Source: Candidatus Falkowbacteria bacterium
Lineage (GTDB): Bacteria > Patescibacteriota > Patescibacteriia > Patescibacteriales > WJLG01
Direction of reading: 5' to 3'
DNA: 64,000 nt
Assembly (NCBI GenBank): GCA_963747695.1
Contig: CAVVFV010000012.1
Span: 26,659 to 90,658, forward strand
The translations under genes and the position numbers were made by a program. The first letter of the stretch is position 1. Every line of letters starts with the position of its first letter. Below are positions 5,965 through 63,142 of this stretch, piece by piece. The notes under the pieces were generated by a model that worked only from the letters and a program-made list of their open reading frames with translations, did no database searches and was not told the origin of the DNA.

Positions 5965-5978
5965 TTTAACGATAATGA

Positions 5979-7607: not shown

Positions 7608-7610
7608 TTT

Positions 7611-7722: not shown

Positions 7723-7735
7723 TAAACAATAAAAA

Positions 7736-7766: not shown

Positions 7767-7773
7767 TCGACGG

Positions 7774-9535: not shown

Positions 9536-9541
9536 AATATA

Positions 9542-9648: not shown

Positions 9649-9725
9649 AATAAAGCTAATAAATCAAATATAAATAATTGGTTCATGATACATGATTCAT
9701 GTTACATGCTACCTGTAATAAAACT

Positions 9726-10121
9726 ATGGAAGACAAGAAAATTGAAGTTCCGGCCAAGTTTGAAAAATTGGTTTCGGAAATCGAAAAGATGAGCGTTCTG
9801 GATTTAGCCGAATTGGTTAAGATCCTCGAAGAGAAGTTCGGCGTTTCCGCCGCCGCCCCGATGATGGCCGCTGCCGCCGGTGCCGCTGCCGCAGCTCCGG
9901 AGGAAGAGAAGGATTCTTTCAATGTCGAATTGACTGAAGCCGGCCCCAACAAGATCGCCGTCATCAAGGCCGTCCGGACCGTTACCACTCTTGGTTTGAA
10001 GGAAGCCAAGGATTTGGTTGACGGAGCCCCGAAGATGGTGAAGGAAGGCGCCAAGAAAGACGAAGCCGAATCAATCAAGAAAACTCTGGAAACTGCCGGC
10101 GCGAAAGTCATCCTGAAGTAA
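9726..10121 (+). CDS. rplL: 50S ribosomal protein L7/L12 (start at ATG 9726 rather than track start 9699)
   Basis: Ala/Pro hinge [19 protein letters not shown] and C-terminal [27 protein letters not shown]. Confidence 0.9.
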
Positions 10122-10134
10122 ATACTTCTTCAAA

Positions 10135-10171
10135 TAAAAAAACGTCCTCGACTATGAGGACGTTTTTTTAT
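10135..10171 (+). terminator. Rho-independent terminator after rplL
   Basis: aaaaaACGTCCTCgactatGAGGACGTttttttt. Confidence 0.85.
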
Positions 10172-10189
10172 TAAAAATATAAATTACTT

Positions 10190-10443
10190 TATAGCGCGCA
10201 TTGGAAAATTTTGGATCAGACGCGCAGCGTGGAAACCGTGCAAAATTGCGTTGTCTGAGGAGGCGCCGCGCCGACGAGTATAGCAATTTTGCTAGGTTTC
10301 ATAGCGGAGCGTCCCAAAATTTGTCCAGCGCGCAGTTTTTTGCGCCACTTTTTTTAAAAAAAGTGGCAAAATACAGAATTAATAATGTTGGGAATGTACC
10401 CACCCGCCTCGCCGGGCTCGGCACCACTCCCGAGAGGGGATCC
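10190..10443 (+). ncRNA. Candidate structured ncRNA / complex repeat element, copy 1 (~255 nt; TATAAA-like box upstream, GC hairpin at 3' end)
   Basis: Homologous to 54220-54485 with compensatory substitutions in two helices; the 90-aa ORF across it is not conserved in copy 2. Confidence 0.4.
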
Positions 10444-10445
10444 TT

Positions 10446-12806: not shown

Positions 12807-12903
12807 GCAATTAGGTACTTAGGGATTAGGTGCTTAGGGGCCGTTTTAAATTGTTACGAGAAGGAATCAACAACCTAAGTACCTAGGCACCTAGGTTCCT
12901 AAT
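12807..12903. repeat. Repeat family F locus 1 (TTAGGTACTTAGG-based inverted repeat)
   Basis: ggcaattaggtacttagggattaggtgcttagggg ...35 bp... cctaagtacctaggcacctaggttcctaat. Confidence 0.8.
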
Positions 12904-14462: not shown

Positions 14463-14589
14463 TTTGTCATCCTGAGGCCCCTGGCCGAAGGATCTGATCC
14501 TTCCCGTGTAAAAAAAAGTTTGTTTTTAAGATAAATTTTGTGCGTCCTTGGAAGGAGCAGATCCTTCGCGCGGCGCTCAGGATGACAAA
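14463..14589. repeat. Repeat family K locus 1 (TTTGTCATCCTGAG...GAAGGATC / GATCCTTC...CTCAGGATGACAAA)
   Basis: Inverted arms at 14463-14494 and 14560-14589; relatives at 19925-20070 and 63091-63142. Confidence 0.8.
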
Positions 14590-16360: not shown

Positions 16361-16491
16361 AATGCTAATTAGTTATAATGCTAATTTTCGAATGATGCGA
16401 ATTTCGCGAATTCCCCTCTTGGGAGGGGTGCCGAGCCCGGCGAGGCGTGGTGGGTCATTCGTAGATTCGCATCATTCGTGAAATTAGCATT
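16361..16491. repeat. Family-C-like palindromic element with nested GC-rich hairpin module (16412-16454) identical to the 3' module of the 10190/54220 elements in reverse orientation
   Basis: aatgctaatt...gatgcgaatttcgcgaat TCCCCTCTTGGGAGGGGTGCCGAGCCCGGCGAGGCGTGGTGGGT cattcgtagattcgcatcattcgtgaaattagcatt. Confidence 0.7.
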
Positions 16492-16995: not shown

Positions 16996-17003
16996 TTTTT
17001 TTA

Positions 17004-17408
17004 TTGTCATTCCCGCGCAGGCGGGAATCCAGTAACCTTGTCATTCCCGCGAAGGCGGGAATCCAGAAAATATGAAGGAGGGGAAAAGTTATTACGTTTA
17101 TATTTTAGCCGGCAATAGAAACGGCACGCTTTACACGGGCATTACCAATAGTTTGATTAGAAGAATTCAAGAACATAAAACAAAATACTTTAAAGGTTTT
17201 ACGGAAAAATATGGAGTTGATAAGTTAGTGTATTATGAAATTTATGGCAGTCCGAACGATGCGATTCATCGGGAGAAATGTATTAAAAAATGGAATAGAG
17301 ATTGGAAATTAAATTTAATAGAAAAGAATAATCCAACTTGGAAAGATTTATCAGTAGATTTATATTAACGTTTTTAATCTGGATTCCCGCCTTCGCGGGA
17401 ATGACGAA
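17004..17408. mobile_element. TIR-bounded mini-element carrying a GIY-YIG nuclease gene, inserted between atpF and atpH
   Basis: Two direct copies of TTGTCATTCCCGCG(C/A)AGGCGGGAATCCAG at 17004-17031 and 17038-17066; perfect inverted copy CTGGATTCCCGCCTTCGCGGGAATGACGAA at 17379-17408. Confidence 0.6.
17072..17368 (+). CDS. GIY-YIG nuclease family protein (YhbQ/UPF0213-like, 98 aa)
   Basis: SYYVYIL..GTLYTGITNSLIRRIQEH GIY-YIG core; low GC. Confidence 0.8.
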   Translation: MKEGKSYYVYILAGNRNGTLYTGITNSLIRRIQEHKTKYFKGFTEKYGVDKLVYYEIYGSPNDAIHREKCIKKWNRDWKLNLIEKNNPTWKDLSVDLY

Positions 17409-18245: not shown

Positions 18246-18320
18246 AATTAGTTCATTGGTCGATTAGTTAATTAGTTTTGTAGACTAAGTGACTAATCAA
18301 CTAATTAACTAATCAACTAA
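18246..18320. repeat. Repeat family E locus 1 (GATTAGTTAATTAGTT / AACTAATTAACTAATC inverted pair) with TATAAT boxes upstream of atpA
   Basis: Perfect 16-bp inverted arms; relatives at 44070-44190 and 37088-37121. Confidence 0.75.
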
Positions 18321-18326
18321 AAACAT

Positions 18327-19862
18327 ATGAGTAATACTAAAGATTTCATCATTGAAGAATTGAGAAAACGGATCGACGGTTTTAAATCCGAAGCCGGCGA
18401 AAAGACTTTCGGCCGCGTGATTTCCGTCGGCGACGGCATTGCCCGCGTATCCGGCTTAGGCGACGCGATGATGTCGGAAATGTTGGAATTCAAATCCGCT
18501 GCCGGTTCAAAGTTCGGCGTGGTTTTGAATCTTGAAGAGGACTCGGTCGGCGCGATTATTCTTGATGATACGGAAGGAATCAAGGAAGGGGATGAAGTCG
18601 TGGCTTTGAAGCGCATTTTGGAAGTTCCGGTTTCGGAAGCGATCATCGGCCGCGTTTTGAATCCGTTGGGTAAAGCTCTGGATGGCAAAGAAGAAATCAA
18701 AACAACTAAATTTTATCCGGTGGAAAAAGTCGCTCCGGGCGTTATCACCCGTGAATCCGTGAAAAAGCCGTTGCAGACCGGCATTAAAGCTATCGACGCG
18801 ATGATCCCGATCGGCCGCGGCCAGCGCGAACTAATCATTGGCGATCGTCAGATCGGTAAGACTGCTATCGCTATTGACACTATCATTAACCAGAAGGGCA
18901 AGAACGTTAAATGTATTTATGTTGCAATCGGTCAGAAGGAATCGAAGATCGCCGGCATCGTTGCCAAATTGAAAGAAGCAGGCGCGATGGAATATACCAC
19001 CGTTATTTTGGCGGGCGCTTCGGACCCAGCTTCTCTCTTATATATCGCTCCGTTTGCCGGTTCGGCTATGGCGGAATATTTCTTGGATAAAGGCGAGGAT
19101 GTTTTGATCGTTTATGATGACTTGACCAAGCACGCCGCGGCTTATCGCGAACTTTCTCTTTTGTTAAGAAGACCTCCGGGACGCGAGGCTTATCCGGGCG
19201 ACGTTTTTTATCTCCATTCTCGTTTATTGGAACGTGCTTGCAAATTGAACAAGGATTTTGGCGGCGGTTCCATTACCGCTTTGCCGGTTATTGAAACTCA
19301 GTCCGGCGACGTGTCCGCTTACATTCCGACCAATGTTATTTCCATTACCGACGGCCAGATTTATCTGGTTCCGGATTTATTTTATCAGGGCAATCGTCCG
19401 GCCGTGGATGCCGGTATTTCCGTTTCCCGTGTCGGTTCAGCCGCGCAGATCAAGGCGATGAAAAAAGTGGCCGGCAAGATGAGGTTGGAAGTGGCGCAAT
19501 ATCGCGAGCTGGCGGCTTTCGCCCAGTTCGGTTCGGATTTGGATGAAGATACAAAAAGAAAATTGGAACGCGGCAAGCGCATCGTGGAAATCTTGAAGCA
19601 AGGCCAGTATGTCCCGATGCCCGTGGAAGAGCAGGTGGCGATTTTCTTTGCCGTGACCAATGGCTTGATGGATAATGTGCCGGTGGAAAAGATCGTTGAA
19701 TTTGAACCGAAGATGGTTGAATATGTGAAGGCCCGCGGCGCAGATGTGTTGAAGGCGATCAAGACATCCGGTGAATTGACTGATGATACGAATGCAAAGT
19801 TGAAGAAGTTGATAGAGGATTTTAAGGACACATTAGAATATGTAGGGAAGTCGGGTATATAA
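18327..19862 (+). CDS. atpA: F0F1 ATP synthase subunit alpha
   Basis: P-loop [13 protein letters not shown] and alpha-specific motifs; 511 aa. Confidence 0.95.
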
Positions 19863-19915
19863 TGCGAATACTACGAATTGTACGCGAATACAACGAACAT
19901 TTATTTACGAAAGTT
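19862..19915. repeat. Partial family C copy
   Basis: aatgcgaatactacgaattgtacgcgaatacaacgaac. Confidence 0.6.
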
Positions 19916-19924
19916 TTTTAAATT

Positions 19925-20070
19925 TTTGTCATCCTGAGCGCCGCGCGAAGGATCTATTGTCCGAGAAGCTTTCAATTTATAGATAAAAAATTTTGATTGA
20001 ATAAAGTCGGCGTTCCTTCAATATAGATCCTTCGTCAGGGACTCCCTGGCCGGGCAGGCAGGATGACAAA
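19925..20070. repeat. Repeat family K locus 2
   Basis: tttgtcatcctgagcgccgcgcgaaggatc ... gatccttcgtcagggactccctggccgggcaggcaggatgacaaa. Confidence 0.8.
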
Positions 20071-20142
20071 AGAAAGAAGAATGGCAAAATAAAAAAAACG
20101 ACCCGTTGGAGATGAGCCGTTTTATAAAGACTTTTTTGTGGT

Positions 20143-20608: not shown

Positions 20609-21606
20609 ATGTCAAGTACTAAGGAAATACAACGCAGAATAAAATCCATCGGCAATACTAAGAAAATCACCAAGGCGATGGAAATGGTCTCGGCCGCCAA
20701 GATGAGGAAAACCATCGAGGCGGTATTGAAGACGCGGTCATACGCCAATTTAAGCTGGATGACAGTTTTAAATATCGCTTCTTCGGTGCACGCCGGAAAA
20801 TATCTGCATCCGCTTTTGGCGACTCGCAAGGAAATAAAGCGCGAGGCGATAGTTCTTATCACTTCCAATCGCGGTCTTTGCGGCAGTTTCAATTCGGCCG
20901 TGATCGCCAAAGCGGTCAATTCGATCAAGAAACATCATGTTGAAGAAATAAAACTGACCGAGAGCGTAAGTGCTAAAGTTGATCGAGGAGTTGATTTTAT
21001 CTTGTTGGGCAAAAAAGGCATTTCGGTAAAATCCCGCTACAATTATAATATTGCCGCCGAATTCATCAAAGAAGACGTGGCCTATCAAGCTAAAGAAGTT
21101 GTGCCGGTCGCCAAGATGATCATCAATGATTTTCTTTCCGGAAAATATGATAAGGTGATGGTGGCTTATACCGATTTTGTCAGCCCGTCCAAGCAGATTC
21201 CCCGCGTCAAGCAGATCTTGCCGATCGATTTGGCAGCCAAGGATCATCATTTGGGAATCGTCGGTCAGGATCCGAAGATCGGCGCCGACGCTGAATTTAT
21301 CAAAGCCAAAGAAGAAAAATATTTGCACGATGAAAAGCACGAATCCTATGTTTTTACCTATGAACCGTCGGCCGAAGAAGTTTTGAATGAAATTTTGCCG
21401 AGATTGTTGGAAGTTCAGTTGTTCCAGGCTTTGTTGGAATCCAACGCCTCCGAGCATTCCGCCCGCATGGCCGCGATGCATAAAGCCACCGATGCCGCCA
21501 AAGATCTGGTCGCCGAGCTTACCTTATATTATAACAAGGCTAGGCAGGCGGCGATTACGAGAGAAATTTCAGAAATTAGTGCGGGCGTATCGGCCATGAA
21601 CAGTTA

Positions 21607-21607
<1 letters not shown>
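20609..21607 (+). CDS. atpG: F0F1 ATP synthase subunit gamma (long form, 332 aa)
   Basis: N-terminal KEIQRRIKSIGNTKKITKAMEMVSAAKMRK and C-terminal helix signature. Confidence 0.9.
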
Positions 21608-23416
<1,809 letters not shown>

Positions 23417-23518
23417 CCAATAAGAAATATCCAATAACCAAAAAATATTTAAATATTAAAATATTATAATATTTTTTTAAATATTGGTTATTAATTATTT
23501 GATATTATCAGATTTAGT

Positions 23519-23947: not shown

Positions 23948-24287
23948 ATGGTATCAAGCGCAGGGCAAGCCCTACGCCCATCTTTTTCAAAAGGTATCCC
24001 AGCCGCAAGCGGACGGGGTATTTTTTAATCGCTCGCTCGGAAATAATCGCAGCTTAGGCGCGGGATTATTTCGCTCGCTTCGCTTGAAAATAAACTAATT
24101 TTACATAAAAATAAGGCTCGAACGGCCTTGTTTTTTTGTTGGGCATTTCCTTAAGAATCGGGCAAAGCTTTTGGCGGCTGGAAATTGTTGACAAAAAATT
24201 GAATATATGCTATCTTAGTGAGTTAATTTATGTAGCCATTAAAAGCTTCAGTCTTTTCTAACAAGGAGGCTGACCGAAAATTACATT

Positions 24288-25114: not shown

Positions 25115-25176
25115 TCGTAGGAACGCAATATTTTGCGTTCCCGTTCGCCAGAACGCAAAATATTGCGCTCCTACGA
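25115..25176. repeat. Repeat family A locus 2 (inverted pair)
   Basis: tcgtaggaacgcaatattttgcgttc ... gaacgcaaaatattgcgctcctacga. Confidence 0.8.
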
Positions 25177-28598: not shown

Positions 28599-28665
28599 GG
28601 TAGGAACGCAATACCTTGCGTTCTGATTCACGGCATTTATCGTAGGAACGCAATACCTTGCGTTC
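28599..28665. repeat. Repeat family A locus 3 (two direct units)
   Basis: ggtaggaacgcaataccttgcgttc ... cgtaggaacgcaataccttgcgttc. Confidence 0.8.
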
Positions 28666-36974: not shown

Positions 36975-37121
36975 TATTTTTCAAGTTCTTATAAATTTCT
37001 CATCTGTCCGCGGACAGGTGGGAAATAATAAGAAAATTGAATAATAGTTACTTAGTTGTCTTGCTGGCCAAGATAAATCGAATCCCAAACTAATTAACCA
37101 ATTAACTAATTCACTAATATA

Positions 37122-38294
37122 ATGAAAATCGCCATAATCGGACAAAAAGGAATTCCCAGCCGTTCGGGCGGGATCGAAAAACACGTGGAAGATCTGTCGG
37201 TCCGCTTGGTTAAGGCTGGTCATGAAGTTTATGTCTATACCCGTCCCAATTATACCGATAAAAATTTGCAAGAATTCCAAGGCGTGAAATTAGTGTCATT
37301 GCCTTCGATCGCTACCAAGCATTTGGACGCGATCTCTCATACTTTTCTGGCTTGTCTCGATGTTGCCAAACGGGATGTCGATGTGATCCATTTCCATTCC
37401 ATCGGTCCGTCGTCCTTAATTTGGCTGATGAAAATTTTGAAACCGGGCGTGCCGATTGTCGCGACTTATCACAGCCCTTGCTATAAGCATCAGAAATGGG
37501 GACTGTTCGCCAAAGCTTATCTTAAATTCGGCGAATTTTTCGCTTGCCGCGTGGCCGATAAGACCATCGCTGTCTCTAAAGTTTTGAAAGAATTCGCCGC
37601 CAAGCAATACGGCCGCGTTCCCGAATATATTCCCAATGGCGTGGTGGAAGGAAACAATACCGCGGCTAAGAATATCAAATATTTCGGTCTGAAGAAAGAC
37701 GGCTACATTCTCGCCGTGGGCCGGTTAGTGAAGCACAAGGGTTTTGAATATTTAATTAAAGCTTTCCGCAACGTGAAAACCGACAAGAAATTGGTCATCG
37801 CCGGCGGCAGCGCTTTCACGGATAAATATGTTCGCCGTCTGCAGGATTTGGCGGCCGGCGATAAGCGGATCGTTTTTACCGGCGCGCAGACCGGCCGGAC
37901 TTTGGCGGAACTTTTTTCCAACGCCTATCTTTTCGTCCAGCCGTCCGAATCGGAAGGCTTGTCGATCGCTTTGCTGGAAGCGATGGCTTACGGCAAGGCC
38001 ACTTTGGTTTCGGATATCCCGGCCAACCGCGAGGCGATTTCTTACACCGGTTATACTTTCCGCAATATGAATGTCGCCGATCTGACCGGCAAATTGAACG
38101 GCTTGTTGCGCAATCCGGAAATCGTCAGCGCCATGGGTGAGATGCAGAAAAAAAGAGTGTTGAAAGAGTATGATTGGGAAGCGATCGTTCGGAGTACTGA
38201 AAAAGTTTATCATGCCGCGCTGCAGAAAAAACCGGTAGTGATCAAAGTCCGCAAGCTGAAATTCGCGCAAAGATTTTTGAATATATTCTTTTAA
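37122..38294 (+). CDS. Glycosyltransferase family 4 (GT-B)
   Basis: MKIAIIGQKGIPSRSGGIEKHVEDL; ESEGLSIALLEAMAYGKATLVSDIPANRE. Confidence 0.8.
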   Translation: MKIAIIGQKGIPSRSGGIEKHVEDLSVRLVKAGHEVYVYTRPNYTDKNLQEFQGVKLVSLPSIATKHLDAISHTFLACLDVAKRDVDVIHFHSIGPSSLIWLMKILKPGVPIVATYHSPCYKHQKWGLFAKAYLKFGEFFACRVADKTIAVSKVLKEFAAKQYGRVPEYIPNGVVEGNNTAAKNIKYFGLKKDGYILAVGRLVKHKGFEYLIKAFRNVKTDKKLVIAGGSAFTDKYVRRLQDLAAGDKRIVFTGAQTGRTLAELFSNAYLFVQPSESEGLSIALLEAMAYGKATLVSDIPANREAISYTGYTFRNMNVADLTGKLNGLLRNPEIVSAMGEMQKKRVLKEYDWEAIVRSTEKVYHAALQKKPVVIKVRKLKFAQRFLNIFF

Positions 38295-40980: not shown

Positions 40981-41063
40981 CTTTACAAAAAAATCCAATC
41001 TTGTTATATTGCTATATTGTAAGATTGCCGGGCTATGGAAAGAAGCGGAGTAAAATATTATTT

Positions 41064-41420
41064 ATGATTTTGTCTATCAATACGATTGGTCAACCGGGGA
41101 TCGAGATCGGCCTGAAAGAAGCGGATAAATTTATCGCGCAAAAAAAGATTGAACCTGGACGAGTGCAGGCGGAAAAATTATTAGCGGCGGTCGAGGCTGT
41201 TTTAAAAATGAAAAAGATCAAGCTGAAGGATATCGAAGCGATCGAGGTAGAAAATAGGGGAGGCAGTTTCACTTCTCTGCGCATCGGCGTGGCCGTGGCT
41301 AATGCCCTCGGGTTTGCCTTGGGAATACCGGTCAAGGGAACGGCCGGACCGGCCAAGATGGTCGAACAGATCAGTATTGTTGAGCCGATGTATGATCGGG
41401 AGCCTGATATCGGGATTTAG
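41064..41420 (+). CDS. TsaB-like (inactive Kae1/YeaZ-type) N-terminal domain protein, short form
   Basis: ILSINTIGQPGIEIGL...GGSFTSLRIGVAVANALGFALGIPV resembles TsaB N-terminus. Confidence 0.5.
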   Translation: MILSINTIGQPGIEIGLKEADKFIAQKKIEPGRVQAEKLLAAVEAVLKMKKIKLKDIEAIEVENRGGSFTSLRIGVAVANALGFALGIPVKGTAGPAKMVEQISIVEPMYDREPDIGI

Positions 41421-41525
41421 TATTTCGTATTTGGTATATCGTATTTCGTATATTTTTTAAAATTTAGGTAATTTGTTAAATTTTTTGGGCGAAATACCAA
41501 ATACGAGATACGAAATACGAATCGC
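41419..41525. repeat. Repeat family D locus 1 (TATTTCGTATTTGGTAT-based inverted repeat)
   Basis: tagtatttcgtatttggtatatcgtatttcgtata ... gaaataccaaatacgagatacgaaatacgaatcgc. Confidence 0.8.
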
Positions 41526-41649
41526 TGTGCATTACCTGTTAATAACACTTATCCACCTTAAATTTATTTATCAATCGTCCCGTGAGGGCGGTTTTTTTAT
41601 TGGCTAATTTTAAATAACAACCTGCTTGGGGAAAATTAGTCCAAAGTGT

Positions 41650-41678
41650 TTGACGATGGCGGTTTAGTGGTGTACAAT
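41650..41678 (+). promoter_or_regulatory. Putative sigma70-like promoter (TTGACG-17-TACAAT) for mraZ operon
   Basis: ttgacg atggcggtttagtggtg tacaat. Confidence 0.5.
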
Positions 41679-41718
41679 TATAGTATGTTGGTGAAAAGTG
41701 GGGAAAGGAGGTGAAATT

Positions 41719-41896
41719 GGTATTTCGTATCCCGTATTTAGTATTTCGTAATATTACGAAAGAACGCAGAAAAAAATACTACGCATTTTGCGGGGGTATC
41801 TTTTAAAAAAGATGAGGCGAGTGCCTGCGCCGCTGTTGAATCGCATTTATTTGTTTCGAAGTTTTAAAGTATATACGAAATACCAAATACGAAATT
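41719..41896. repeat. Repeat family D locus 2 enclosing the mraZ 5' leader
   Basis: ggtatttcgtatcccgtatttagtatttcgtaatattacgaaag ... tatacgaaataccaaatacgaaattt, ending 1 nt before mraZ ATG. Confidence 0.7.
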
Positions 41897-41897
41897 T

Positions 41898-42329
41898 ATG
41901 TTTATTGGCGAATATAGCCACAATTTGGATAGCAAAGGCAGAATTGCCGTACCGGCTAAATTTAGGAATATGCTGGAAAAAGGGGCAGTTGTCACGAAAG
42001 GACTGGATAACTGTCTTTTTCTGTATCCAAAAACCAAATGGGAAGAGATAGCGCAAAAATTCGCCAATTTGCCGGTTAGCCAGGCCAAGGCCAGAGCTTT
42101 TGCCCGCCATATGCTGGCCGGGGCGATGAATGTTGAGTTTGATAACCAGGGCCGAATAAATTTACCTGAATATTTAAGAAAATTTGCTAATTTGAAAAAG
42201 GAAACCATCATTGCCGGCTTGTTCGATCGGCTCGAGATCTGGGATGAAGCGGCCTGGAATAAATATAAAACAGCGACTGATAAAGATTCTGGCCAGATTG
42301 CTGAAGCTTTAGGGGAACTTGGGGTATAG
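41898..42329 (+). CDS. mraZ: Transcriptional regulator MraZ
   Basis: MFIGEYSHNLDSKGRIAVPAKFR and second DxxxR repeat. Confidence 0.9.
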   Translation: MFIGEYSHNLDSKGRIAVPAKFRNMLEKGAVVTKGLDNCLFLYPKTKWEEIAQKFANLPVSQAKARAFARHMLAGAMNVEFDNQGRINLPEYLRKFANLKKETIIAGLFDRLEIWDEAAWNKYKTATDKDSGQIAEALGELGV

Positions 42330-42344
42330 AAGATCTGTGAATAT

Positions 42345-42463
42345 AATCCGAATGCTACGAATGTCAATCCGAATCTACAAATGACATCCGAATTATCCGA
42401 ATAGGTTTATTATCCATTCGGATGATATTCGTAGATTCGCCGAAAATTCGTAGATTCGAATTA
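42345..42463. repeat. Family-C-related inverted repeat (CCGAATCTACAAAT / ATTCGTAGATTCG) between mraZ and rsmH
   Basis: aatccgaatgctacgaatgtcaatccgaatctacaaatgacatccgaatta...ccattcggatgatattcgtagattcgccgaaaattcgtagattcgaatta. Confidence 0.7.
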
Positions 42464-42469
42464 AATTTT

Positions 42470-43405
42470 ATGGAGTATCAACACACCCCGGTAATGCTAA
42501 AAGAGGTAACGGAATATCTGAAACCCGAACCAGGAGGATATTTCATTGATGGCACGCTGGGCGGCGGCGGATATACCGAGGCATTGTCGAAAATTATCGG
42601 GGCGGACGGAAAAATTTTGGCAATCGATCTGGATCAACAAGCTATTGATAATACCGCCCGAAAAAAATTAAGCAACGTAGTTTTAGTTAAAGATAATTTT
42701 GCTAATTTATCGGCGATCATTGCCGAAACCGTGGAACCGGGAAAATTATTCGACGGGTTTGTTCTGGATTTGGGCCTTTCCTCGTTTCAGCTGGCCGATC
42801 TGCGACGCGGTTTTTCTTTCCGAGAAGATTCTCCGCTGGATATGGCTTTCGCTTCCGATGGCGGCGATCACAAAACTCGGGACCTCGTAAATAACTGGCG
42901 CGAAGAGGATCTCCAAAGGATAATTTTCGCTTACGGCGAAGAAAAAAATGCGCGGCGGATCGCCAAGGGGATCGTGGAACGCCGGAAATCCGGCCGGATC
43001 GAAACGACCGGGGATCTGGTGGAGATCATAAAAAAAGCTATTCCGCGCCGTTTGTGGAGCGCTAAAGTCCATCCGGCCACCAAAACATTCCAGGCCTTGC
43101 GGATCGCCGTCAACCATGAATTGGAAAGTTTAGAGAAGGTTTTGCCACAGGCAACGGCGGCCTTAAAAAGCGGCGGCCGTCTAGTGATAATTTCCTTTCA
43201 CAGTCTCGAAGACCGGATCGTTAAAGACTACTTCAGACAGGAAAGCCGTGATTGCCTTTGCCCGCCGGAAATTCCAATCTGCCGTTGCGGCCATCTTGCC
43301 TCGATCAGAATAATCACCAAAAAACCCGTCCCGCCGAGCGAGGGAGAAATTGAGCTCAATCCGCGCAGTCGCAGCGCGAAGATGAGGGTGGCAGAGAAGA
43401 TATAA
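42470..43405 (+). CDS. rsmH: 16S rRNA (cytosine1402-N4)-methyltransferase RsmH (start ATG 42470)
   Basis: HTPVMLKEV...DGTLGGGGYTEAL...GFVLDLGLSSFQL motifs. Confidence 0.9.
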   Translation: MEYQHTPVMLKEVTEYLKPEPGGYFIDGTLGGGGYTEALSKIIGADGKILAIDLDQQAIDNTARKKLSNVVLVKDNFANLSAIIAETVEPGKLFDGFVLDLGLSSFQLADLRRGFSFREDSPLDMAFASDGGDHKTRDLVNNWREEDLQRIIFAYGEEKNARRIAKGIVERRKSGRIETTGDLVEIIKKAIPRRLWSAKVHPATKTFQALRIAVNHELESLEKVLPQATAALKSGGRLVIISFHSLEDRIVKDYFRQESRDCLCPPEIPICRCGHLASIRIITKKPVPPSEGEIELNPRSRSAKMRVAEKI

Positions 43406-43451
43406 AAAATTTTTGCATTGAAAAAAAACTTAAGATCATTCGTCGAACTTT

Positions 43452-43587
43452 AAAATCCGAAGCACAAAATCCTAAATCCTAAACAAATCCAAAGGTTCAA
43501 AATCCTAAATCTGAAACAATTTTTAATTTTTGACATTTGAATTTTTAATTTGTTTCGGATTTCGTGCTTAGAATTTCGGATTTAGCC
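43452..43587. repeat. Repeat family H (AATCCTAAATCCTAA / GATTTCGTGCTTAGAATTTCGGATTTAG inverted pair)
   Basis: Read directly in rsmH-ftsL spacer. Confidence 0.7.
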
Positions 43588-43663
43588 ATAGCCCTTGCAT
43601 GCAAGTATTCCAAGGATTTAAGCAAATTTAATAATATATTTAAATAAAAACAAAAATAAAACC

Positions 43664-44005
43664 ATGACACAAAAGTACGACGGGGTTTACTCCCAAAAAA
43701 TCGAAAAGAACCAGCCGCAATGGATGAATATCAGAACCGTGAATTTTTTGTTGCTGACTTTAATTATCGCGGGCGCTTTGTATTATGTAACCGGAATCAA
43801 TGATTTGGTGGTAAAGGGCTTCACCTTGCAGGAGTTGAAAGCAAAAGTCAACCTACTCCAGGAGGAAAACCAGAACTTAACGGTGCAAACCGCGTCTTTG
43901 CAGTCATACAATGATTTGGCTAAAAGGATTGCCGATTTAAAGATGGTGGCCGTTGACAATGTCGATTATCTAAAAGTCGGTTCCGGAGTGGCTATGGCAC
44001 GATAG
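43664..44005 (+). CDS. FtsL-like cell division protein (TM helix + coiled coil)
   Basis: TM LLLTLIIAGALYYV then heptad-rich LQELKAKVNLLQEENQNL; position between rsmH and ftsI. Confidence 0.55.
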   Translation: MTQKYDGVYSQKIEKNQPQWMNIRTVNFLLLTLIIAGALYYVTGINDLVVKGFTLQELKAKVNLLQEENQNLTVQTASLQSYNDLAKRIADLKMVAVDNVDYLKVGSGVAMAR

Positions 44006-44069
44006 CAGAGAGCAGAGGAACAAAGAGCATAGAGCAGGGTTAATATTCGAGCCCGACATTACAAGCAAG

Positions 44070-44190
44070 CTTAATTAGTCGATTAGTTAATTGGTTAATT
44101 AGTTTTATTGCAAAAAAGTTTCGGCTAATTTTATTATCGAAGCCTAATTTTACTAAAACTAAGCACCTAATTAACTAAGCAACTAATGAC
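44070..44190. repeat. Repeat family E locus 2
   Basis: cttaattagtcgattagttaattggttaattagtttt ... aactaagcacctaattaactaagcaactaatgac. Confidence 0.75.
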
Positions 44191-44223
44191 ATTGTTTATT
44201 GTTGAAAATCAAAAATTCGGACA

Positions 44224-46302
44224 ATGCTAAAAAACAGGCGCGACAATCGAAATTCTGCCCACAATAATCGCATTAATATTTTAATCGCGATTGTTTTTTT
44301 ATTCGGCGCTGCCATCGTCGGCCGGCTGTTTTATCTGCAGGTTTTAAAGCACGGGTTCTATCTGGCCGAAGCAAACAGCCAGCAGCAGACCGAAACCACT
44401 CTGATTCCGGATCGGGGAAAAATTTACCTTGAAGACCAGCCCAGTAAAACGACCGGCGAAGTTTTATATCCCTTGGCCACCAATAAGCAATTCGCCTTGC
44501 TTTATGCGATTCCCCGCGACATCAAGAGCCAGGCGGAAGCCGCGGATATCGCCGGCAAACTTTTTTTTGTCTTTGACGAGGCCAACGCGGGAAAACAAGT
44601 CGATGATAGCTTCGTCCAAACCGATCAGGCCGAGCTGGCGGCTGAGTTGGCGCCGACTGCTTCGCTGCCGGCGGACCAAAAGAAGATCCAGGCCGCCGAG
44701 ATCACTCACCAATATAATTTGCTTCACGCCGATAAGACTTGGCTCGCTAACCGGGCCAAGAAACGCGATGAAGCGATCCAGAATATCAAAGACGCGGATA
44801 TCGCCGCCTACCTGGCAATTTTAAGCCGGAGCGATTCGCAATACGCGCCTTTGGAAAAAAAAGTCAGCGAGGATGATTTGAAAAGATTCTACTCGCTATT
44901 CCTTGATCCGGACGGCCAACAGATAGTTTATGACAAATTAGAAATCAATAACGGCAAGGTCGAGGAAATACTTGCCGATAACAGCCAAAGAGAAATCCAT
45001 CCCAACGGCATCTATCATTCAATGCAGACTTATCGTTTTTATCCGGAAAATGACGTCGGCTCGCAGCTCTTGGGTTTCGTGCGTTCGGATAATAATACGC
45101 TCACCGGAAATTACGGCTTGGAAGGTTTTTTTGACAAAGAGTTAGCCGGCGTCAACGGCTATATCAAATCGGATATCGGAGCCGGATCGGATGTCGGCAT
45201 CCTTAACGGGCAGGAATACGTCAAACCGACCAATGGCTCCGACTTGATCCTGACGATCGATCGCTCGATTGAATTTTATGCCTGCGAACAATTGAAAGAA
45301 GCGGCGCAGCTGCATCAATCGGATTCGGCCAGCCTGGTGGCGGTCGATCCCAAAACAGGAGCGATCATCGCTATGTGCAACTGGCCGGATTTTGATCCGA
45401 ACAATTATCAGTCAGTAACCGATATGAATGTGTTTAACGATCCGATCGTCTTCCAGCAGTACGAACCCGGTTCGGTTTTTAAAGCGGTTACCATGGCGGC
45501 TGCCTTGAACGAAGGCAAGGTCACCCCGGATACGACTTATGAGGATAAGGGATTTGTAATGGAAAAAGGTTGGAAACAGCCGATCAAAAATGCTGAAGCC
45601 GGCGCGCACGGAGTAGTAACTATGACTTACGTCTTGGAGGAATCTTTGAATACTGGCGCGATTTTCGCCATGCAGCAGATCGGCGCCCCGACCTTTGCCA
45701 AATACGTGCAAGCCTTCGGGTTTGGCGTGCGTTCCGGAGTGGAACTGGAATCGGAAAGTCCCGGCAATATCAACAATCTGCTGGTGAAGAAAATCAATGA
45801 TCTGGACGCGGATACTGCTTCTTTCGGGCAGGGTTTGAGCACTACGCCCTTGCAAATGCTCATGGCATACGCGGCGATCGCCAATGGCGGCATGTTAATG
45901 AAGCCTTATGTGGTCAAAGACATTGTCGATCCTGCCGGTAACCGCGCGGAAACCAAGCCGGTTACAGTCCGACAAGTAATCTCTGAACAAACCGCCAATC
46001 TTTTAACGGGAATGCTGATCTCCGACGTCGAGAGCGGTAATTCGCAAAAAACCAAGATCTCCGGTTATTATGTGGCCGGTAAGACCGGCACGGCGCAGAT
46101 CCCTGATAAGGGCGGCTATCTGCTTAATCAGACGATTCATACTTTTATCGGTTTTGCTCCGGCGGACGATCCGAAATTCGTTATGCTGGTCAAATTTGAT
46201 AATCCCAAAGATTTCCCGTATGCTGATTATACGGCCACCCCGTTATTCAAAACAGTCGCCGATTTTATGCTGCAGTATTACCAAGTGCCTAAGGAGCGGT
46301 AA
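44224..46302 (+). CDS. ftsI: Penicillin-binding protein 2 / FtsI transpeptidase (with insertion in N-terminal domain)
   Basis: N-terminal TM; transpeptidase motifs SVFK, SLNT, KTGTA. Confidence 0.85.
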   Translation: MLKNRRDNRNSAHNNRINILIAIVFLFGAAIVGRLFYLQVLKHGFYLAEANSQQQTETTLIPDRGKIYLEDQPSKTTGEVLYPLATNKQFALLYAIPRDIKSQAEAADIAGKLFFVFDEANAGKQVDDSFVQTDQAELAAELAPTASLPADQKKIQAAEITHQYNLLHADKTWLANRAKKRDEAIQNIKDADIAAYLAILSRSDSQYAPLEKKVSEDDLKRFYSLFLDPDGQQIVYDKLEINNGKVEEILADNSQREIHPNGIYHSMQTYRFYPENDVGSQLLGFVRSDNNTLTGNYGLEGFFDKELAGVNGYIKSDIGAGSDVGILNGQEYVKPTNGSDLILTIDRSIEFYACEQLKEAAQLHQSDSASLVAVDPKTGAIIAMCNWPDFDPNNYQSVTDMNVFNDPIVFQQYEPGSVFKAVTMAAALNEGKVTPDTTYEDKGFVMEKGWKQPIKNAEAGAHGVVTMTYVLEESLNTGAIFAMQQIGAPTFAKYVQAFGFGVRSGVELESESPGNINNLLVKKINDLDADTASFGQGLSTTPLQMLMAYAAIANGGMLMKPYVVKDIVDPAGNRAETKPVTVRQVISEQTANLLTGMLISDVESGNSQKTKISGYYVAGKTGTAQIPDKGGYLLNQTIHTFIGFAPADDPKFVMLVKFDNPKDFPYADYTATPLFKTVADFMLQYYQVPKER

Positions 46303-46381
46303 GCAGAAGTAAGAAGTATGAAGTTAGAAGTAAGAAGTTTTTATAAGATTTCTTACTTCTAACTTTTTACTTCTAACTTTC
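46303..46381. repeat. Repeat family I (AGAAGTAAGAAGT / ACTTCTTACTTCT palindrome)
   Basis: gcagaagtaagaagtatgaagttagaagtaagaagt...atttcttacttctaactttttacttctaactttc. Confidence 0.8.
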
Positions 46382-46387
46382 TAATCT

Positions 46388-47683
46388 ATGTTTAAAAAAA
46401 TAATATTATTAAAATTGAAGTGGCTGGCTAAAATGATTTTAGCTAAATACAAGCCAAAAATAGTCGGCATTACCGGCAGCGTAGGAAAGACCAGCACCAA
46501 GGATGCGGTTTTTTGCGTGCTCAAAACCAAATTCCGCGTCCGGGCGAGCATTAAGAATTATAACAATGAATTCGGTTTGCCGTTGTCGGTGATCGGGTCT
46601 GATTCGCCCGGGAAAAATTTTTTCGGTTGGCTGGCGGTTTTTTGGCAAGCTTATTGGCTGATCCTTTTTTTCGCCAAGGATTATCCCGAAGTGTTGATTT
46701 TGGAAATGGGCGTCGATAAGGTCGGCGATATGGATTATCTGACCAGCATCGTCAAGTGCGATGTGGGGGTGATCACGGGGATCGGCGAAGCGCATTTGGA
46801 AGCTTTTGGTTCGGTTGATAAGATCCAACTGGAAAAAGGAAAGCTGTTGAAAAAATTGGCCAAGAATGGCTGGGCAATCCTCAATTTTGACGATGAGAAG
46901 ACTAAGGCGCTCGCCGCCGAAAGCAAAGTCCGGGTTTTGGGTTATGGATTCAATCCCGGCGCCGAAGTCAGCGGCAGTAATCTGCAATTCAAATTCGAAG
47001 AGTCGAGGAACTTGGATAATTTGCTCGGTCTGACTTTTAAAGTTAGTTATGAAGGTTCGATGGTTCCGGTGGTCTTACCCGAAGTCATCGGCGGCGGCGC
47101 AGTTTACGCGGCGCTGGCGGCGATCGCGGTCGGACTGACCTTCAAGATCAATCTGGTGGAGATTGCGGCGGCCTTGCAGAAATTCGTTTCACCCAAAGGT
47201 CGAATGAAATTGATCGACGGGATCAAGCATACTTTATTGATTGACGATTCTTATAATTCTTCGCCGCAATCTTCGCTCGCGGCGATTGATTTCATCAAGC
47301 GGATCGAAACCGACCAGCCCTTCCGCAAGATCGCCGTTATGGGCGATATGCTGGAATTAGGTACTTACTCTGAAGCCGGACATCGCGAAGTCGGCCGTGC
47401 CGTAGCTGTTGCCAAATTCGATTTGCTCGTCACGGTAGGCGAGCGGGCGAGAGAGATTAGCCATGGCGCCAAGGCGGCCGGGTTGGCTGATGATCAAATA
47501 TTCAGTTTTTCTCATAACGCCGAAGCCGGTTTGTTCGTCCAGGATCGTTTAAAAGCCGGCGACCTGGTCTTGATCAAAGGATCGCAAGGCGCCCGGATGG
47601 AACAGGTCGTCAAGGAACTGATGGCAAATCCGCTCGAGGCCGGCATTCTGCTGGTTCGCCAGGGAGCCGAGTGGAGCGCGTAG
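46388..47683 (+). CDS. murF: UDP-N-acetylmuramoyl-tripeptide--D-alanyl-D-alanine ligase
   Basis: Mur ligase P-loop GITGSVGKTSTKD; Mur ligase central/C-terminal domains. Confidence 0.85.
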   Translation: MFKKIILLKLKWLAKMILAKYKPKIVGITGSVGKTSTKDAVFCVLKTKFRVRASIKNYNNEFGLPLSVIGSDSPGKNFFGWLAVFWQAYWLILFFAKDYPEVLILEMGVDKVGDMDYLTSIVKCDVGVITGIGEAHLEAFGSVDKIQLEKGKLLKKLAKNGWAILNFDDEKTKALAAESKVRVLGYGFNPGAEVSGSNLQFKFEESRNLDNLLGLTFKVSYEGSMVPVVLPEVIGGGAVYAALAAIAVGLTFKINLVEIAAALQKFVSPKGRMKLIDGIKHTLLIDDSYNSSPQSSLAAIDFIKRIETDQPFRKIAVMGDMLELGTYSEAGHREVGRAVAVAKFDLLVTVGERAREISHGAKAAGLADDQIFSFSHNAEAGLFVQDRLKAGDLVLIKGSQGARMEQVVKELMANPLEAGILLVRQGAEWSA

Positions 47684-47743
47684 GAACGCAATATTTTGCG
47701 TTCAAAATAAATCGCAGGAACGCAAGATATTGCGTTCCTACAG
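47678..47743. repeat. Repeat family A locus 4; murF stop codon TAG is part of the repeat
   Basis: gcgtaggaacgcaatattttgcgttc ... gcaggaacgcaagatattgcgttcctacag. Confidence 0.8.
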
Positions 47744-47783
47744 TTTTATATGTCACAAAATTGAAGTAAAACCGTTAATATAT

Positions 47784-48353
47784 ATGAACGAAGAAATGAG
47801 TAAAATCGAGCCGAGCGTACTGATGCAAAGAGCTCAGAATGGCGATAAAGAAGCGTTTGGCTTGATTTATGAGTCTTATTTTAGCCATATTTATCGGTAT
47901 ATTTATTTCCGGGTGCAGAGCAAGGCAGTGGCGGAAGATATCACTCAGACAGTTTTCTTAAAAGTTTTTGAAAAATTATCTTCCTATCGGGAAAAATCGC
48001 GACCGCCCTTGGCTTATTTGTTCACTGTGGCGAGAAATAAAGTAATCGACTATTGGCGGAAAAATAAACAGACGGTTCAAGATCCGGAAAAGGATCTGAG
48101 CAAAATTCCCGAAACAGTCGATTCGGCTGCTGAAATAATTTCGCGGACCATCGCCATGGAAAAGATCAGCGCGGCTTTGGAAAATATTCCCGGAGATCAG
48201 CGCGATGTGATAATTTTTAAATATCTTAACCAGTTATCTTATCCGGAAATCGCCAAACTGCTAAAGAAAAAAGAAGCGGCAATCCGAAAATTGGCCAGCC
48301 GGGGATTAAATAGTTTACGAGAATATTTTAAAGGAATTGATCTATATGACTGA
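47784..48353 (+). CDS. ECF-type sigma-70 family RNA polymerase sigma factor
   Basis: Region 2 FGLIYESYFSHIYRYIYFRV...AEDITQTVFLKVF; region 4 LSYPEIAKLLKKKEAAIRKLASRGL. Confidence 0.8.
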   Translation: MNEEMSKIEPSVLMQRAQNGDKEAFGLIYESYFSHIYRYIYFRVQSKAVAEDITQTVFLKVFEKLSSYREKSRPPLAYLFTVARNKVIDYWRKNKQTVQDPEKDLSKIPETVDSAAEIISRTIAMEKISAALENIPGDQRDVIIFKYLNQLSYPEIAKLLKKKEAAIRKLASRGLNSLREYFKGIDLYD

Positions 48354-51503: not shown

Positions 51504-51611
51504 TTGTCATATTGTCATATTGTCATATTGCTATATTGTTACGCTACGAAATTAATTAGCTGTGTATTGAAAACGTTGCGCAACAATATAACAATATAGC
51601 AATATAACAAT
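51504..51611. repeat. Repeat family B locus 3 (three tandem TTGTCATA units in left arm)
   Basis: attgtcatattgtcatattgtcatattgctatattgtta ...ttgcgcaac... caatataacaatatagcaatataacaat. Confidence 0.8.
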
Positions 51612-51618
51612 AAATCCG

Positions 51619-54147: not shown

Positions 54148-54219
54148 TTTTCTGTTATATAGAATGCGAATTTTTTTAATTGGTTTTTTTGTTAATTTAT
54201 AATCTTCCTTATAGCGCGC

Positions 54220-54485
54220 ATTGGGAAATTTCCGTAATCACGCAGCGTAGAAGCCGTGCAAAAGTTGCGTTGTCCGAAGCCCGCTTCATTATTATAAAAA
54301 TTATAAATAAAGGCGGGCAAGAATAGCAATTTTGCTAGGCTTCCTAGCGGAGTGATAGGAAATTTTCCCTGCGCGCAGTTTTTTGCGCTACTTTTTCTAA
54401 AAAAAGTAGCAAAGATTTTGAAATAATGTCAGGAATATACCCACCCCGCCTCGCCGGGCTCGGCACCCCTCCCAAGAGGGGATTT
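54220..54485 (+). ncRNA. Candidate structured ncRNA / complex repeat element, copy 2 (~265 nt; TATAAT at 54198-54203; 3' GC hairpin + T-run)
   Basis: Homolog of 10190-10443; CCCCTCccaaGAGGGGattttt 3' end abuts recR stop. Confidence 0.4.
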
Positions 54486-55481: not shown

Positions 55482-55483
55482 AA

Positions 55484-55637
55484 ATTAGGTACTTAGTTGA
55501 TTAGGTACTTAGGCCTACCTATTCAAGCTCATTTATTTTATAATCTTTACGCATTAAATTATGAGTTCGTTTATTAAAATAGAAGAAATTATCCATACTA
55601 CTACTAAGTACCTAATATACTAAGTGCCTAATTAACC
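55484..55637. repeat. Repeat family F locus 2
   Basis: aattaggtacttagttgattaggtacttaggcctacc ... ctactaagtacctaatatactaagtgcctaattaacc. Confidence 0.8.
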
Positions 55638-60224: not shown

Positions 60225-60232
60225 AATTAGAT

Positions 60233-60290
60233 CGTAGGAACGCAATATTTTGCGTTCAAATCATTAGAACGCAAAGTATTGCGTTCCTAC
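60233..60290. repeat. Repeat family A locus 5 (inverted pair) immediately upstream of next gene
   Basis: cgtaggaacgcaatattttgcgttc ... gaacgcaaagtattgcgttcctac. Confidence 0.8.
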
Positions 60291-60294
60291 CATT

Positions 60295-61269: not shown

Positions 61270-61561
61270 AAAATCCCCCTCTCGAGATGGGTGTCCGCCC
61301 CGGTTTGTCCGCCTCGGACGGAGCCGAACGGGGAGGTTTAGAAAAAAAGTCCCCTCCACGGGAGGGGTGGACAGTCCCTGACTGGACGGGGAGGGTCTAT
61401 TCCTGACATTATTATATTATTTTAAATAAGTCGGAAGGAATAATAATTTTAATATATTTACGTTTGCCTAATGAAAAATAAAGAATCAGGAATAATAATA
61501 GACCCACCCCGCCCTCGCTAATCACTCGGGCACCCCTCCCGTGGAGGGGACAAATTTAATT
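61270..61561. repeat. GC-rich hairpin modules in inverted orientation around an AT-rich core
   Basis: GTCCCCTCCACGGGAGGGGTG at 61349-61369 and its exact reverse complement CACCCCTCCCGTGGAGGGGAC at 61531-61551; inner arms gggtctattcctgacattatt / aataataatagaccc. Confidence 0.7.
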
Positions 61562-63090: not shown

Positions 63091-63142
63091 TTTTTTGTCA
63101 TCCCGAGTGCCGCGCGAGGGATCTATTTCCGAGGACAGGGAT
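63091..63142. repeat. Partial family K copy
   Basis: ttttttgtcatcccgagtgccgcgcgagggatctatttccgaggacagggat. Confidence 0.6.

Follow-up and report, generated by a model that had tools for sequence, protein, structure and literature searches.

Hairpins of inverted heptamer and octamer repeats in the gene spacers of a Patescibacteria genome

Many spacers between protein-coding genes in a 64-kb stretch of a Candidatus Falkowbacteria genome (64,000 nucleotides of contig CAVVFV010000012.1; hereafter the window) are filled by long hairpins whose arms are inverted arrays of imperfect 7–8-nt tandem repeats. These hairpins are a real and statistically robust feature, and represent a known but unexplained kind of bacterial repeat in a new phylum, with unusually diverse motifs. 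The reading that we favour, with a probability of roughly 55%, is that they are heptamer- and octamer-repeat hairpins like those of intervening sequences (IVSs), generated at the DNA level and selfish or neutral, and that they constitute the Patescibacteria version of the short tandemly repeated repetitive (STRR), GGGAATC and TAACTGA repeats. Their architecture is shared with the terminal stems of 23S rRNA IVSs. They are probably neither selected sequence-specific regulatory RNAs nor transcription terminators. The phenomenon is not unprecedented, as heptamer-repeat hairpins have been described in cyanobacteria, in Xanthomonas and in the Coxiella IVS. The most interesting outcome is an association of such hairpins with PF05635 (S23p/IVS) genes, which could connect rRNA IVSs with intergenic heptamer repeats.

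An earlier note on this DNA had claimed that almost every intergenic spacer carries its own inverted repeat built from short tandem sub-motifs, and that these repeats fall into distinct families. We scored the best inverted repeat in each of the 53 spacers of at least 46 nt and found a score of 28 or more in 24 of them (45%), compared with 0.8% of 265 dinucleotide shuffles and none of 159 length-matched coding segments. About 16 of the approximately 24 inverted-repeat spacers across the window were of the tandem-sub-motif type. The sub-motif construction and the distinct families were borne out, and all the elements that had been listed (families D, E, F, H, I and J and an AT palindrome) are present where the note placed them. 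The claim of near-universal occupancy held between 41.4 and 47.8 kb, where six of six spacers contain elements, but not across the window, where the other spacers often carry GC-rich terminators. A detector of imperfect tandem arrays found 28 arrays, 25 of them intergenic, although coding sequence makes up 84% of the window. When eight elements were folded as RNA, their z-scores ranged from −4.5 to −9.7, and no shuffle out of 200 folded as well. All elements lie between protein-coding genes, including between cistrons of the dcw (division and cell wall), atp and rplJL operons, and the window contains no rRNA. An Rfam scan returned nothing at the gathering threshold except a ribosomal protein L10 leader; relaxed E-values added only look-alikes of plant miRNA precursors, far below threshold. 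The hairpins are identical in L091, a Logan assembly made independently from the same strain, so they are not assembly artefacts.

The elements share a common anatomy. Each consists of paired inverted arrays of three to six imperfect 7–8-nt units, mismatched at roughly one position per unit; the mean stem length is about 33 bp, and the GC content of the arms is 26%. Among 127 arrays from 14 positive loci, the unit period was 7 in 74, 8 in 36 and any other value in 17. In co-directional spacers the 5′ arm typically begins 0–18 nt past the stop codon and the 3′ arm mostly ends 0–13 nt short of the following start codon, so that the spacer is filled by the element. Hairpins are also present in divergent spacers, and one-armed arrays exist. 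The positions of stem mismatches are locked in phase with the unit period (summed Rayleigh statistic 45.6 versus 25.8 ± 4.3; none of 2,000 permutations reached the observed value), which leaves helices of 6–7 bp split by 1 × 1 mismatches at the variable position of the unit. This pattern fits an independent amplification, in each arm, of a few unit variants. The 64 kb contain 12 or more unrelated motif families, without one or a few dominant motifs. A further idea, that the heptamers serve as stop codons in all frames, was rejected by eye: several motifs, such as GTATTTC/GAAATAC, contain no stop.

The densest run of elements lies in the dcw cluster, whose genes were named through the Pfam families of syntenic genes: a tsaB-like gene (41001–41420) in the dcw region, mraZ (41898–42329), rsmH (42470–43405), an ftsL-like gene (43664–44005), ftsI (44224–46302) and a murF-like gene (46388–47683), followed by a gene for an extracytoplasmic function (ECF)-type sigma factor. 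A family D hairpin of GTATTTC/GTATTTG heptamers (41417–41522; arms 41417–41451 and 41490–41522; −33.4 kcal/mol, z = −6.0) begins at the stop codon of the tsaB-like gene, with a canonical terminator (41578–41606) on its 3′ side. A second family D hairpin (GTATTTC; arms 41716–41748 and 41868–41896) lies in the mraZ 5′ leader and ends 1 nt before the mraZ ATG (41898). The earlier note had listed this copy, and the hairpin is there, with a further, unrelated repeat nested in its loop (approximately 41755–41865 of 41716–41896). The mraZ–rsmH spacer holds a hairpin of TCCGAAT/TACGAAT units (42340–42467; −42.7 kcal/mol, z = −5.2) that was missed in that list; it ends 2 nt before the rsmH ATG (42470) and has a homologue in the same spacer of locus L088. 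Family H, with AATCCTA heptamers (43453–43583; z = −4.6), occupies the rsmH–ftsL spacer 5′ of a conserved A-rich leader, and family E, with AATTAGTT octamers (44074–44187; z = −4.6), the ftsL–ftsI spacer. Family I, with AGAAGTA heptamers (46307–46379; −39.1 kcal/mol, z = −9.7), fills the ftsI–murF spacer from 4 nt past the ftsI stop codon to 8 nt before the murF ATG. The murF–sigma spacer carries a hairpin of the GTAGGAACGCAATATTTTGCGTTC family (47680–47741), a nested palindrome (a hairpin within a hairpin) that is not heptamer-based; this separate repeat family has further copies at 25115–25176, 28610–28665 and 60231–60293.

The earlier note had proposed comparing sister genomes for presence or absence of the elements, and such polymorphism was found. 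The window FtsI is 100% identical to the protein of one record and 80–85% identical to several proteins labelled 'Patescibacteria group bacterium', and the Falkowbacteria label is carried by FtsI relatives at about 45–50% identity. We compared syntenic loci from six further genomes with 80–85% FtsI identity (L088/L089, L001, L002/L003, L085, L004 and L090), all available as partial genomes, so that the spacer comparison covers seven distinct genomes (nine assemblies). A metagenome scan gave only three loci, and an FtsI-alignment scan of genome contigs, in which all of the matches listed had at most 48% identity, served to trace phylogenetic spread. The ftsI–murF spacer contains a heptamer hairpin in all seven genomes, built from at least five motifs: AGAAGTA in the window, AAAGTTR in L088 and L004, GCAGGTA-like units in L001 and L085, GAGATTT in L002 and GAAATTW in L090. 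The rsmH–ftsL spacer is empty, at about 40 nt, in L088, L002 and L004, and is filled by three unrelated families in the window and L001 (family H), in L085 and in L090. Empty spacers of 21–44 nt occur in some close relatives with the same gene order. That the same spacer holds a different motif, or none, in relatives 15–20% diverged in FtsI shows rapid turnover and argues against a sequence-specific function. The ftsI–murF, murF–sigma and tsaB–mraZ spacers are occupied in every genome examined, with differing sequences.

Families also recur at non-orthologous sites. The rsmH–ftsL element of L085 is homologous, loop included, to the rplJ–rplL element of the window (9539–9646, family A), and the mraZ–rsmH element of L090 matches the ftsL–ftsI element of L085. 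Family D (GTATTTC) occurs in three different spacers of L001, as an orthologous copy of the hairpin at 41417–41522 and as paralogous copies, and family E is also found in the murF–sigma spacer of L004 and L090. Adjacent spacers often share one motif, and paralogous copies differ in unit order and loop sequence. Three arm matches scoring 44–53 join non-orthologous spacers of different genomes. Related arm pairs made up 12% of orthologous and 3% of non-orthologous comparisons (p = 0.04), a difference that is weakly informative on motif drift versus replacement. The family E hairpin of the ftsL–ftsI spacer is present as the same element in L090 with a loop insert of about 190 nt; this insert is partly homologous (9839–9890) to the window segment 41755–41865 nested in the second GTATTTC hairpin. 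This GC-richer nested repeat (…gatgaggcgagtgcctgcgccgctgttgaatcgcatttatt…) sits in hairpin loops in two genomes, within a different heptamer hairpin in each, and by eye alone we judged there to be opposite-strand similarity to it at about 23990–24090 of the window. L094 and L095 are 96.6% identical, and no indel longer than 1 nt between them lies outside a single spacer; a heptamer array is among these indels. Hairpins of the same kind occur patchily elsewhere, in L005 (Falkowbacteria), L015, L018, L024, L026, L036, L047 and L056 (labelled Anaerolineae; GGGGAATC units), and are missing from most of the 80 loci sampled.

One element links these hairpins to a protein family. The earlier note had presented family J as a spacer element, which was not borne out: its inverted ATTATAA heptamer arms (21599–21644 and 21984–22029) enclose a plus-strand open reading frame (ORF; 21642–22001, 360 nt) wedged between atpG and atpD, and in the minimum-free-energy fold this frame is enclosed by a long-range stem of about 36 bp. 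The encoded protein is a 'four helix bundle' 23S rRNA IVS/S23p protein (PF05635, 1.6e-28; TIGR02436, 7e-31; PDB 2rld, 2e-34). We examined every PF05635 context that could be fetched from Patescibacteria, IMG/VR contigs, plasmids and phage scaffolds. The gene lies directly between inverted tandem-heptamer arms in 17 of 19 contexts (the window and 16 of 18 others), from at least five phyla, and the heptamer differs each time (GTCGGAG, CAGTGAC, TAGTGAT, GTAATTC and others). PF05635 contexts have a median flank-complementarity score of 36, versus 16 for 66 other genes of the window (Mann–Whitney p = 1.7e-9). Patescibacteria contexts include L092 (between a DUF3467 gene and an unannotated ORF), L094 (between grpE and hsp20), L098 and L018; viral-contig scans gave only two distinct loci, the IMG/VR contigs L105 and L106. 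Plasmid records include Nostoc punctiforme, Euhalothece, Treponema saccharophilum, Bernardetia, Dolichospermum, Monoglobus (between hsdS and hsdR), Candidatus Chlorohelix (two records), Chondrinema (between RND adaptor and permease genes) and Anabaena cylindrica (between cas2 and cas1). The plasmid records with PF05635 are mostly from heterocystous cyanobacteria, the classic STRR taxa, with Nostoc accounting for 16 of 31. The two exceptions are the most divergent matches (40–44% identity), from unverified gut 'phage' scaffolds, and have no two-sided heptamer arms; the association is therefore not universal for the whole Pfam family. Hairpin loops tolerate, or attract, insertions, the PF05635 gene included. 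A diversity-generating retroelement (DGR) was considered for these genes and rejected: the PF05635 gene is flanked by atpG and atpD in the window and elsewhere by pairs such as grpE/hsp20, hsdS/hsdR and cas2/cas1, and no reverse transcriptase is listed among the called or annotated genes beside the PF05635 contexts.

We favour an origin and turnover of the arrays at the DNA level because the unit period peaks at 7, the arms are remodelled independently, unit order is permuted, one-armed arrays exist and no strand signature is seen. On the last point, sense-strand stem mismatches comprise 25 G·U, 33 A·C and 81 others; an excess of G·U over A·C, sought among them as a test of RNA-level selection, was not found, nor did the hairpins have a fixed or preferred arm orientation. 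We therefore see no footprint of selection for RNA pairing over complementarity at the DNA level. Copying between spacers occurs, given that non-orthologous sites have families in common and that neighbouring spacers often carry the same motif. In the mechanism that we propose, arrays would be made and remodelled as DNA: polymerase slippage of heptamer units would change each arm independently, and copying or recombination would move families between neighbouring spacers. The insertions would persist as selfish or neutral DNA, their self-complementary arms folding the insert out of the transcript. By analogy with the Coxiella IVS stem in vitro, the double-stranded RNA stem of about 30 bp would most likely be cut by RNase III; a cut there would split the polycistronic mRNA between cistrons and leave coding sequence unharmed, and such processing would let insertions sit between the cistrons of essential operons.

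Comparison with known systems places the elements in the class of heptanucleotide repeats. They consist of at least three imperfect head-to-tail units of about 7 nt, are strongly restricted to intergenic DNA and, where gene order is conserved, vary in length and sequence among close relatives; the main respect in which the window departs from the class is that it has no one or few dominant motifs. Mazel (1990) reportedly described the heptamer sequences of cyanobacterial STRRs, the title of Jackman and Mulligan (1995) is said to call spacers 'highly variable but structured' between close relatives, and Mrazek (2007) reportedly found that, in many bacteria, heptanucleotide repeats are over-represented more than any other long simple repeat. 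In cyanobacteria, STRRs have 7-bp units and form hairpins in the hupS–hupL spacer, in the nif cluster and at other sites; roles in transcript stability or translational coupling have been proposed for them (PMC2670836, PMC4284476). STRRs resemble the window elements in being hairpin-capable 7-bp tandem units in the intergenic regions of operons; they differ in belonging to cyanobacteria and in usually being described as a few named motifs, whereas the window comes from a small-genome member of the Patescibacteria with its own motif in each spacer and at least 12 families, nearly every element being a complete inverted pair. Xanthomonas has about 186 GGGAATC arrays, 70–75 of which form convergent inverted pairs that can fold into stem-loops (Rehm et al. 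2015, PMC4692102). In the same report, Xanthomonas GGGAATC and Nostoc GGGGAYT arrays are 89–93% intergenic and mostly between co-oriented ORFs, and vary in length and sequence between close species (PMC4692102). The window elements are likewise intergenic heptamers in inverted pairs that vary between close species, but the Xanthomonas repeats have one dominant G-rich motif, studied as a G-quadruplex former, whereas the arms of these candidate phyla radiation (CPR) elements are AT-rich with many motifs. TAACTGA arrays in Beggiatoaceae, Cyanobacteria and Bacteroidetes end a few nucleotides before start codons, where ribosome-binding sites are rare, and their patchy phylogenetic distribution suggests horizontal spread (MacGregor 2015, PMC4679880); they share with the window the intergenic heptamer arrays ending near start codons, but are direct repeats of one motif with one inverted case rather than inverted pairs of many motifs.

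A structural parallel is offered by IVSs that carry an ORF, as in Coxiella and Leptospira: family J has the same ORF family within its heptamer stem. The Coxiella 23S IVS has an S23p ORF within a 28-bp terminal stem, with GACAGAT heptamers of strain-variable copy number beside the ORF; its stem is cut by RNase III in vitro, and the IVS is considered selfish (Warrier et al. 2016, PMC4990558). IVSs in general and the window elements alike have terminal inverted repeats that form a long stem around an insert. The window elements differ in lying in mRNA spacers between protein genes rather than in rRNA helices 25 or 45, and in mostly having no ORF, the S23p/PF05635 ORF being confined to family J. 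For CPR rRNA genes, the IVP domain has been noted only as 'functionally uncharacterized'. In the literature searched, a link between PF05635 and heptamer arrays appears only in the single Coxiella description, and such hairpins are undescribed in Patescibacteria, which is no proof of novelty. Palindromic or hairpin repeats also fill many spacers of Volvox mitochondrial and plastid DNA (PMC2670323), and repetitive hairpin-forming elements occur in the spacers of sponge mitochondria (PMC2800124); in the accessible parts of both sources they are read as selfish DNA. Those repeats resemble the window elements in occupying many spacers of a compact genome and differ in being organellar and, in the same parts, in having no heptamer sub-structure reported. 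Integron attC sites were set aside: the flanks are housekeeping operons of conserved order, and no GTTRRRY ends were seen by eye, without a search for core sites or an integrase.

Several points weigh against the reading of the hairpins as selfish or neutral DNA. Genomes known for heptamer repeats usually have one or few motifs, and the window has at least 12 families. Constant occupancy of the ftsI–murF, murF–sigma and tsaB–mraZ spacers could mean selection for a hairpin there, not neutrality. The G·U test uses only 58 informative mismatches, and is weak if the hairpins are young. As for the putative cleavage by RNase III, the signature motif of this enzyme was not found in the 64-kb window, although the gene may lie elsewhere in the genome. 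A relocation mechanism was not found either, as no target-site duplication stood out and no linked transposase was seen. A six-frame hmmsearch of the loops of ORF-less hairpins found no PF05635 remnants, and this loop search does not support a derivation of ORF-less hairpins from ORF-bearing elements.

Tentatively, and with the odds against it, the PF05635/TIGR02436 protein and the heptamer-repeat hairpins might be two halves of one widespread, unrecognised mobile system. The ORF-bearing hairpin would be the autonomous form, intruding into operons and rRNA genes and made harmless by a stem that RNase III could cleave. Heptamer hairpins without an ORF (among them STRRs, Xanthomonas GGGAATC pairs and the CPR elements) would be non-autonomous or residual forms, or preferred targets. 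Avd, a PF05635 member, assists a nucleic-acid enzyme in DGRs, and the PF05635 protein would, like this homologue, act on heptamer-repeat nucleic acid. If true, one mobile system would explain both the excess and the patchy spread of bacterial heptanucleotide repeats.

The hairpins could instead be functional intercistronic RNA stem-loops under selection, an explanation that we consider unlikely. In a coupling version, the stem would bring the upstream stop codon next to the downstream start, or hide the start until a terminating ribosome melts the stem; in a protection version, it would shield cistron ends from exonucleases and set differential mRNA stability within operons. The roles proposed for STRR hairpins in stability and coupling lend this idea some precedent, as does a stem-loop at the processing site of Anabaena nifH1 that stabilises its transcript. 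So do the close fit of many hairpins between stop and start codons (0–18 nt after the one to 0–13 nt before the other), with no Shine–Dalgarno sequence visible by eye between them, and the occupancy of some spacers in every genome compared despite complete turnover of sequence. However, some close relatives of unchanged gene order have the same spacers without a hairpin, and these empty spacers also lack a Shine–Dalgarno sequence by eye, so a hairpin is not needed to replace one. The missing G·U excess and arm orientation, the hairpins in divergent spacers and the one-armed arrays likewise tell against an RNA function.

A purely local origin is more doubtful still. Here heptamer slippage and intrastrand template switching would generate quasi-palindromes as mutational by-products, with no mobility, no function and convergent motifs. 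The sharp period-7 peak matches a reported slippage bias of bacterial heptanucleotide repeats, and the phase-locked mismatches, the permutation of unit order between copies and the one-armed arrays all suit such a process, as do the orthologous ftsI–murF motifs, which by eye are often one or two substitutions apart (GAAGTTA, AAAGTTA, GAAATTA and GAGATTA). It does not account for the family A copies in the rplJ–rplL spacer of the window and the rsmH–ftsL spacer of L085, which share termini and loop, or for the three arm matches between non-orthologous spacers of different genomes; together these indicate copying between sites rather than independent origin.

Mobilisation of the hairpins as classical MITEs (miniature inverted-repeat transposable elements), a reading that the earlier note had raised, or as elements like REPINs (hairpins of repetitive extragenic palindromic (REP) sequences), seems to us improbable. 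Such elements would be moved in trans by a REP-associated tyrosine transposase (RAYT) or an IS200/IS605-type transposase that recognises the hairpin. Some families are indeed dispersed and relocated, with defined ends (for example, ATAATGCGAATAC...GTATTCGCATCAT); family A has both defined termini and dispersed copies, elements are inserted into one another, and presence or absence is polymorphic. However, at least 12 unrelated families in 64 kb would each need their own sequence-specific enzyme, and loop sequences are not kept from copy to copy. Inspection of three family A copies by eye, without a systematic scan, revealed no obvious target-site duplication, and no transposase was seen among the approximately 12 window ORFs searched against Pfam and NCBIfam or in the precomputed Pfam tables of the loci. 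REP or REPIN elements in particular were rejected: the AT-rich families are many, unrelated and of few copies each, and no RAYT was seen, although none was searched for systematically. That the hairpins, located 3′ of genes, are ordinary Rho-independent terminators is effectively refuted, in agreement with the earlier note: a T-run of at least four follows the 3′ arm in only 2 of 28 elements, stems of about 33 bp at 26% GC lie between the cistrons of conserved atp, rplJL and dcw operons, and separate canonical GC-rich terminators exist, such as that at 41578–41606.

Taken as IVS-like repeats generated at the DNA level, the hairpins bear on reports scattered over about 35 years, from STRRs, Xanthomonas GGGAATC and Beggiatoa TAACTGA repeats to IVS stems. 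Non-coding DNA is scarce in Patescibacteria/CPR genomes, and here hairpin repeats are pervasive, in nearly half of the spacers and in core operons. The syntenic relatives, in which the same spacer has another motif or is empty, provide a natural experiment that separates structure from sequence. For practical purposes, the elements may break short-read assemblies, and they create spurious ORFs, wrong start calls and sub-threshold Rfam matches to 'miRNA precursors'. The rsmH ORF, for instance, was listed from 42422 with its true start at 42470, and the tsaB-like (41001) and rplL (9699) ORFs were likewise over-extended because the first ATG, GTG or TTG falls inside or beside a repeat. A minus-strand ORF at 9683–10111 is spurious, since rplL is on the plus strand.

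Elements outside the dcw cluster follow the same plan. A further family E copy (18247–18313; z = −5.2) ends 13 nt before an ATG at 18327. The third family E copy of the earlier note is present (37086–37123) but is a one-armed AATTAGTT-type tandem array, not an inverted repeat; it abuts an ATG at 37122, and its best inverted partner scores only 16–19. Family F hairpins, with TTAGGTAC-type units, lie at 12810–12903 (z = −4.5) and at 55483–55633, where the hairpin has a 91-nt loop; two minus-strand genes border the spacer that it fills, with the stop codon 7 nt and the start codon 1 nt away. The family B hairpin of TATTGYYA octamers (51510–51612; z = −5.8) has 1 × 1 mismatches once per unit, with further copies at 5882–5965 and 7604–7714. 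The family A element (TGCGAATAC-type; 9539–9646) lies between rplJ and rplL, both identified by Pfam, and has further copies at 1750–1871 and 19857–19897. An AT-rich palindrome (23419–23506) between atpD and atpC has a homologue in L090. Just 5′ of rplJ, an ACAAATT heptamer hairpin (8922–8998) sits between the start codon and the Rfam ribosomal protein L10 leader (8801–8924; 49 bits, above the gathering score). Ordinary GC-rich terminators occupy other spacers (4774–4806, 7735–7760 and 10133–10172).

Two other small ORFs lie between repeats. Inverted GTAGTAT heptamer arms (8211–8248 and 8733–8764) flank a 111-aa ORF (8347–8682) with no Pfam or NCBIfam match; promoter-like and terminator-like sequences seem to belong to this unit, which may represent a second type of hairpin-loop cargo. 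Small-hairpin repeats of GTCATTCCCGCGnAGGCGGGAATCC (16996–17071 and 17380–17405) lie on both sides of a 98-aa ORF (17072–17368), whose flank-complementarity score of 56 exceeds that of every other control gene; L005 has a similar motif.

Other repeats and conserved blocks were observed in the same spacers. An inverted-repeat family TGTCATCCTGAG…CTCAGGATGACAA (14463–14589, 19924–20071 and 63093–63124) has loops of 45–120 nt. A long, structured, GC-rich repeat family ending in '…cccacccgcctcgccgggctcggcac…cctcccgagagggga' occurs at 10195–10445 and 54210–54483, with fragments at 16412–16447 and 61270–61545; in L001 and L090 it lies between the mraZ promoter and start codon. In the window, a block 5′ of mraZ (41640–41715) is conserved in all relatives (L001, L002, L004, L088 and L090), with the variable hairpins inserted on its 3′ side; it contains a promoter-like site (TTGAC-N17-TAnAAT), and spaced boxes of the GTGG type (gtggtgtacaattatagtatgttggtgaaaagtggggaaaggaggtga) that overlap this site recall the operator repeats of MraZ. 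Between the tsaB-proximal hairpin and the terminator at 41578–41606, a 'ctgtgcattacctgttaataacacttatccac' block (41524–41556) is also conserved in all relatives. Two tandem, similar small minus-strand ORFs (7722–7937 and approximately 7990–8150) are, by eye and from DNA similarity, maybe ferredoxin-like; the first, the only one of the two searched, has no Pfam match. Finally, a 'gtcacaaaa…N…ccgttaat' block 5′ of the ECF-type sigma gene (47745–47786 and orthologous spacers) is conserved in all relatives and may be an autoregulated ECF promoter.

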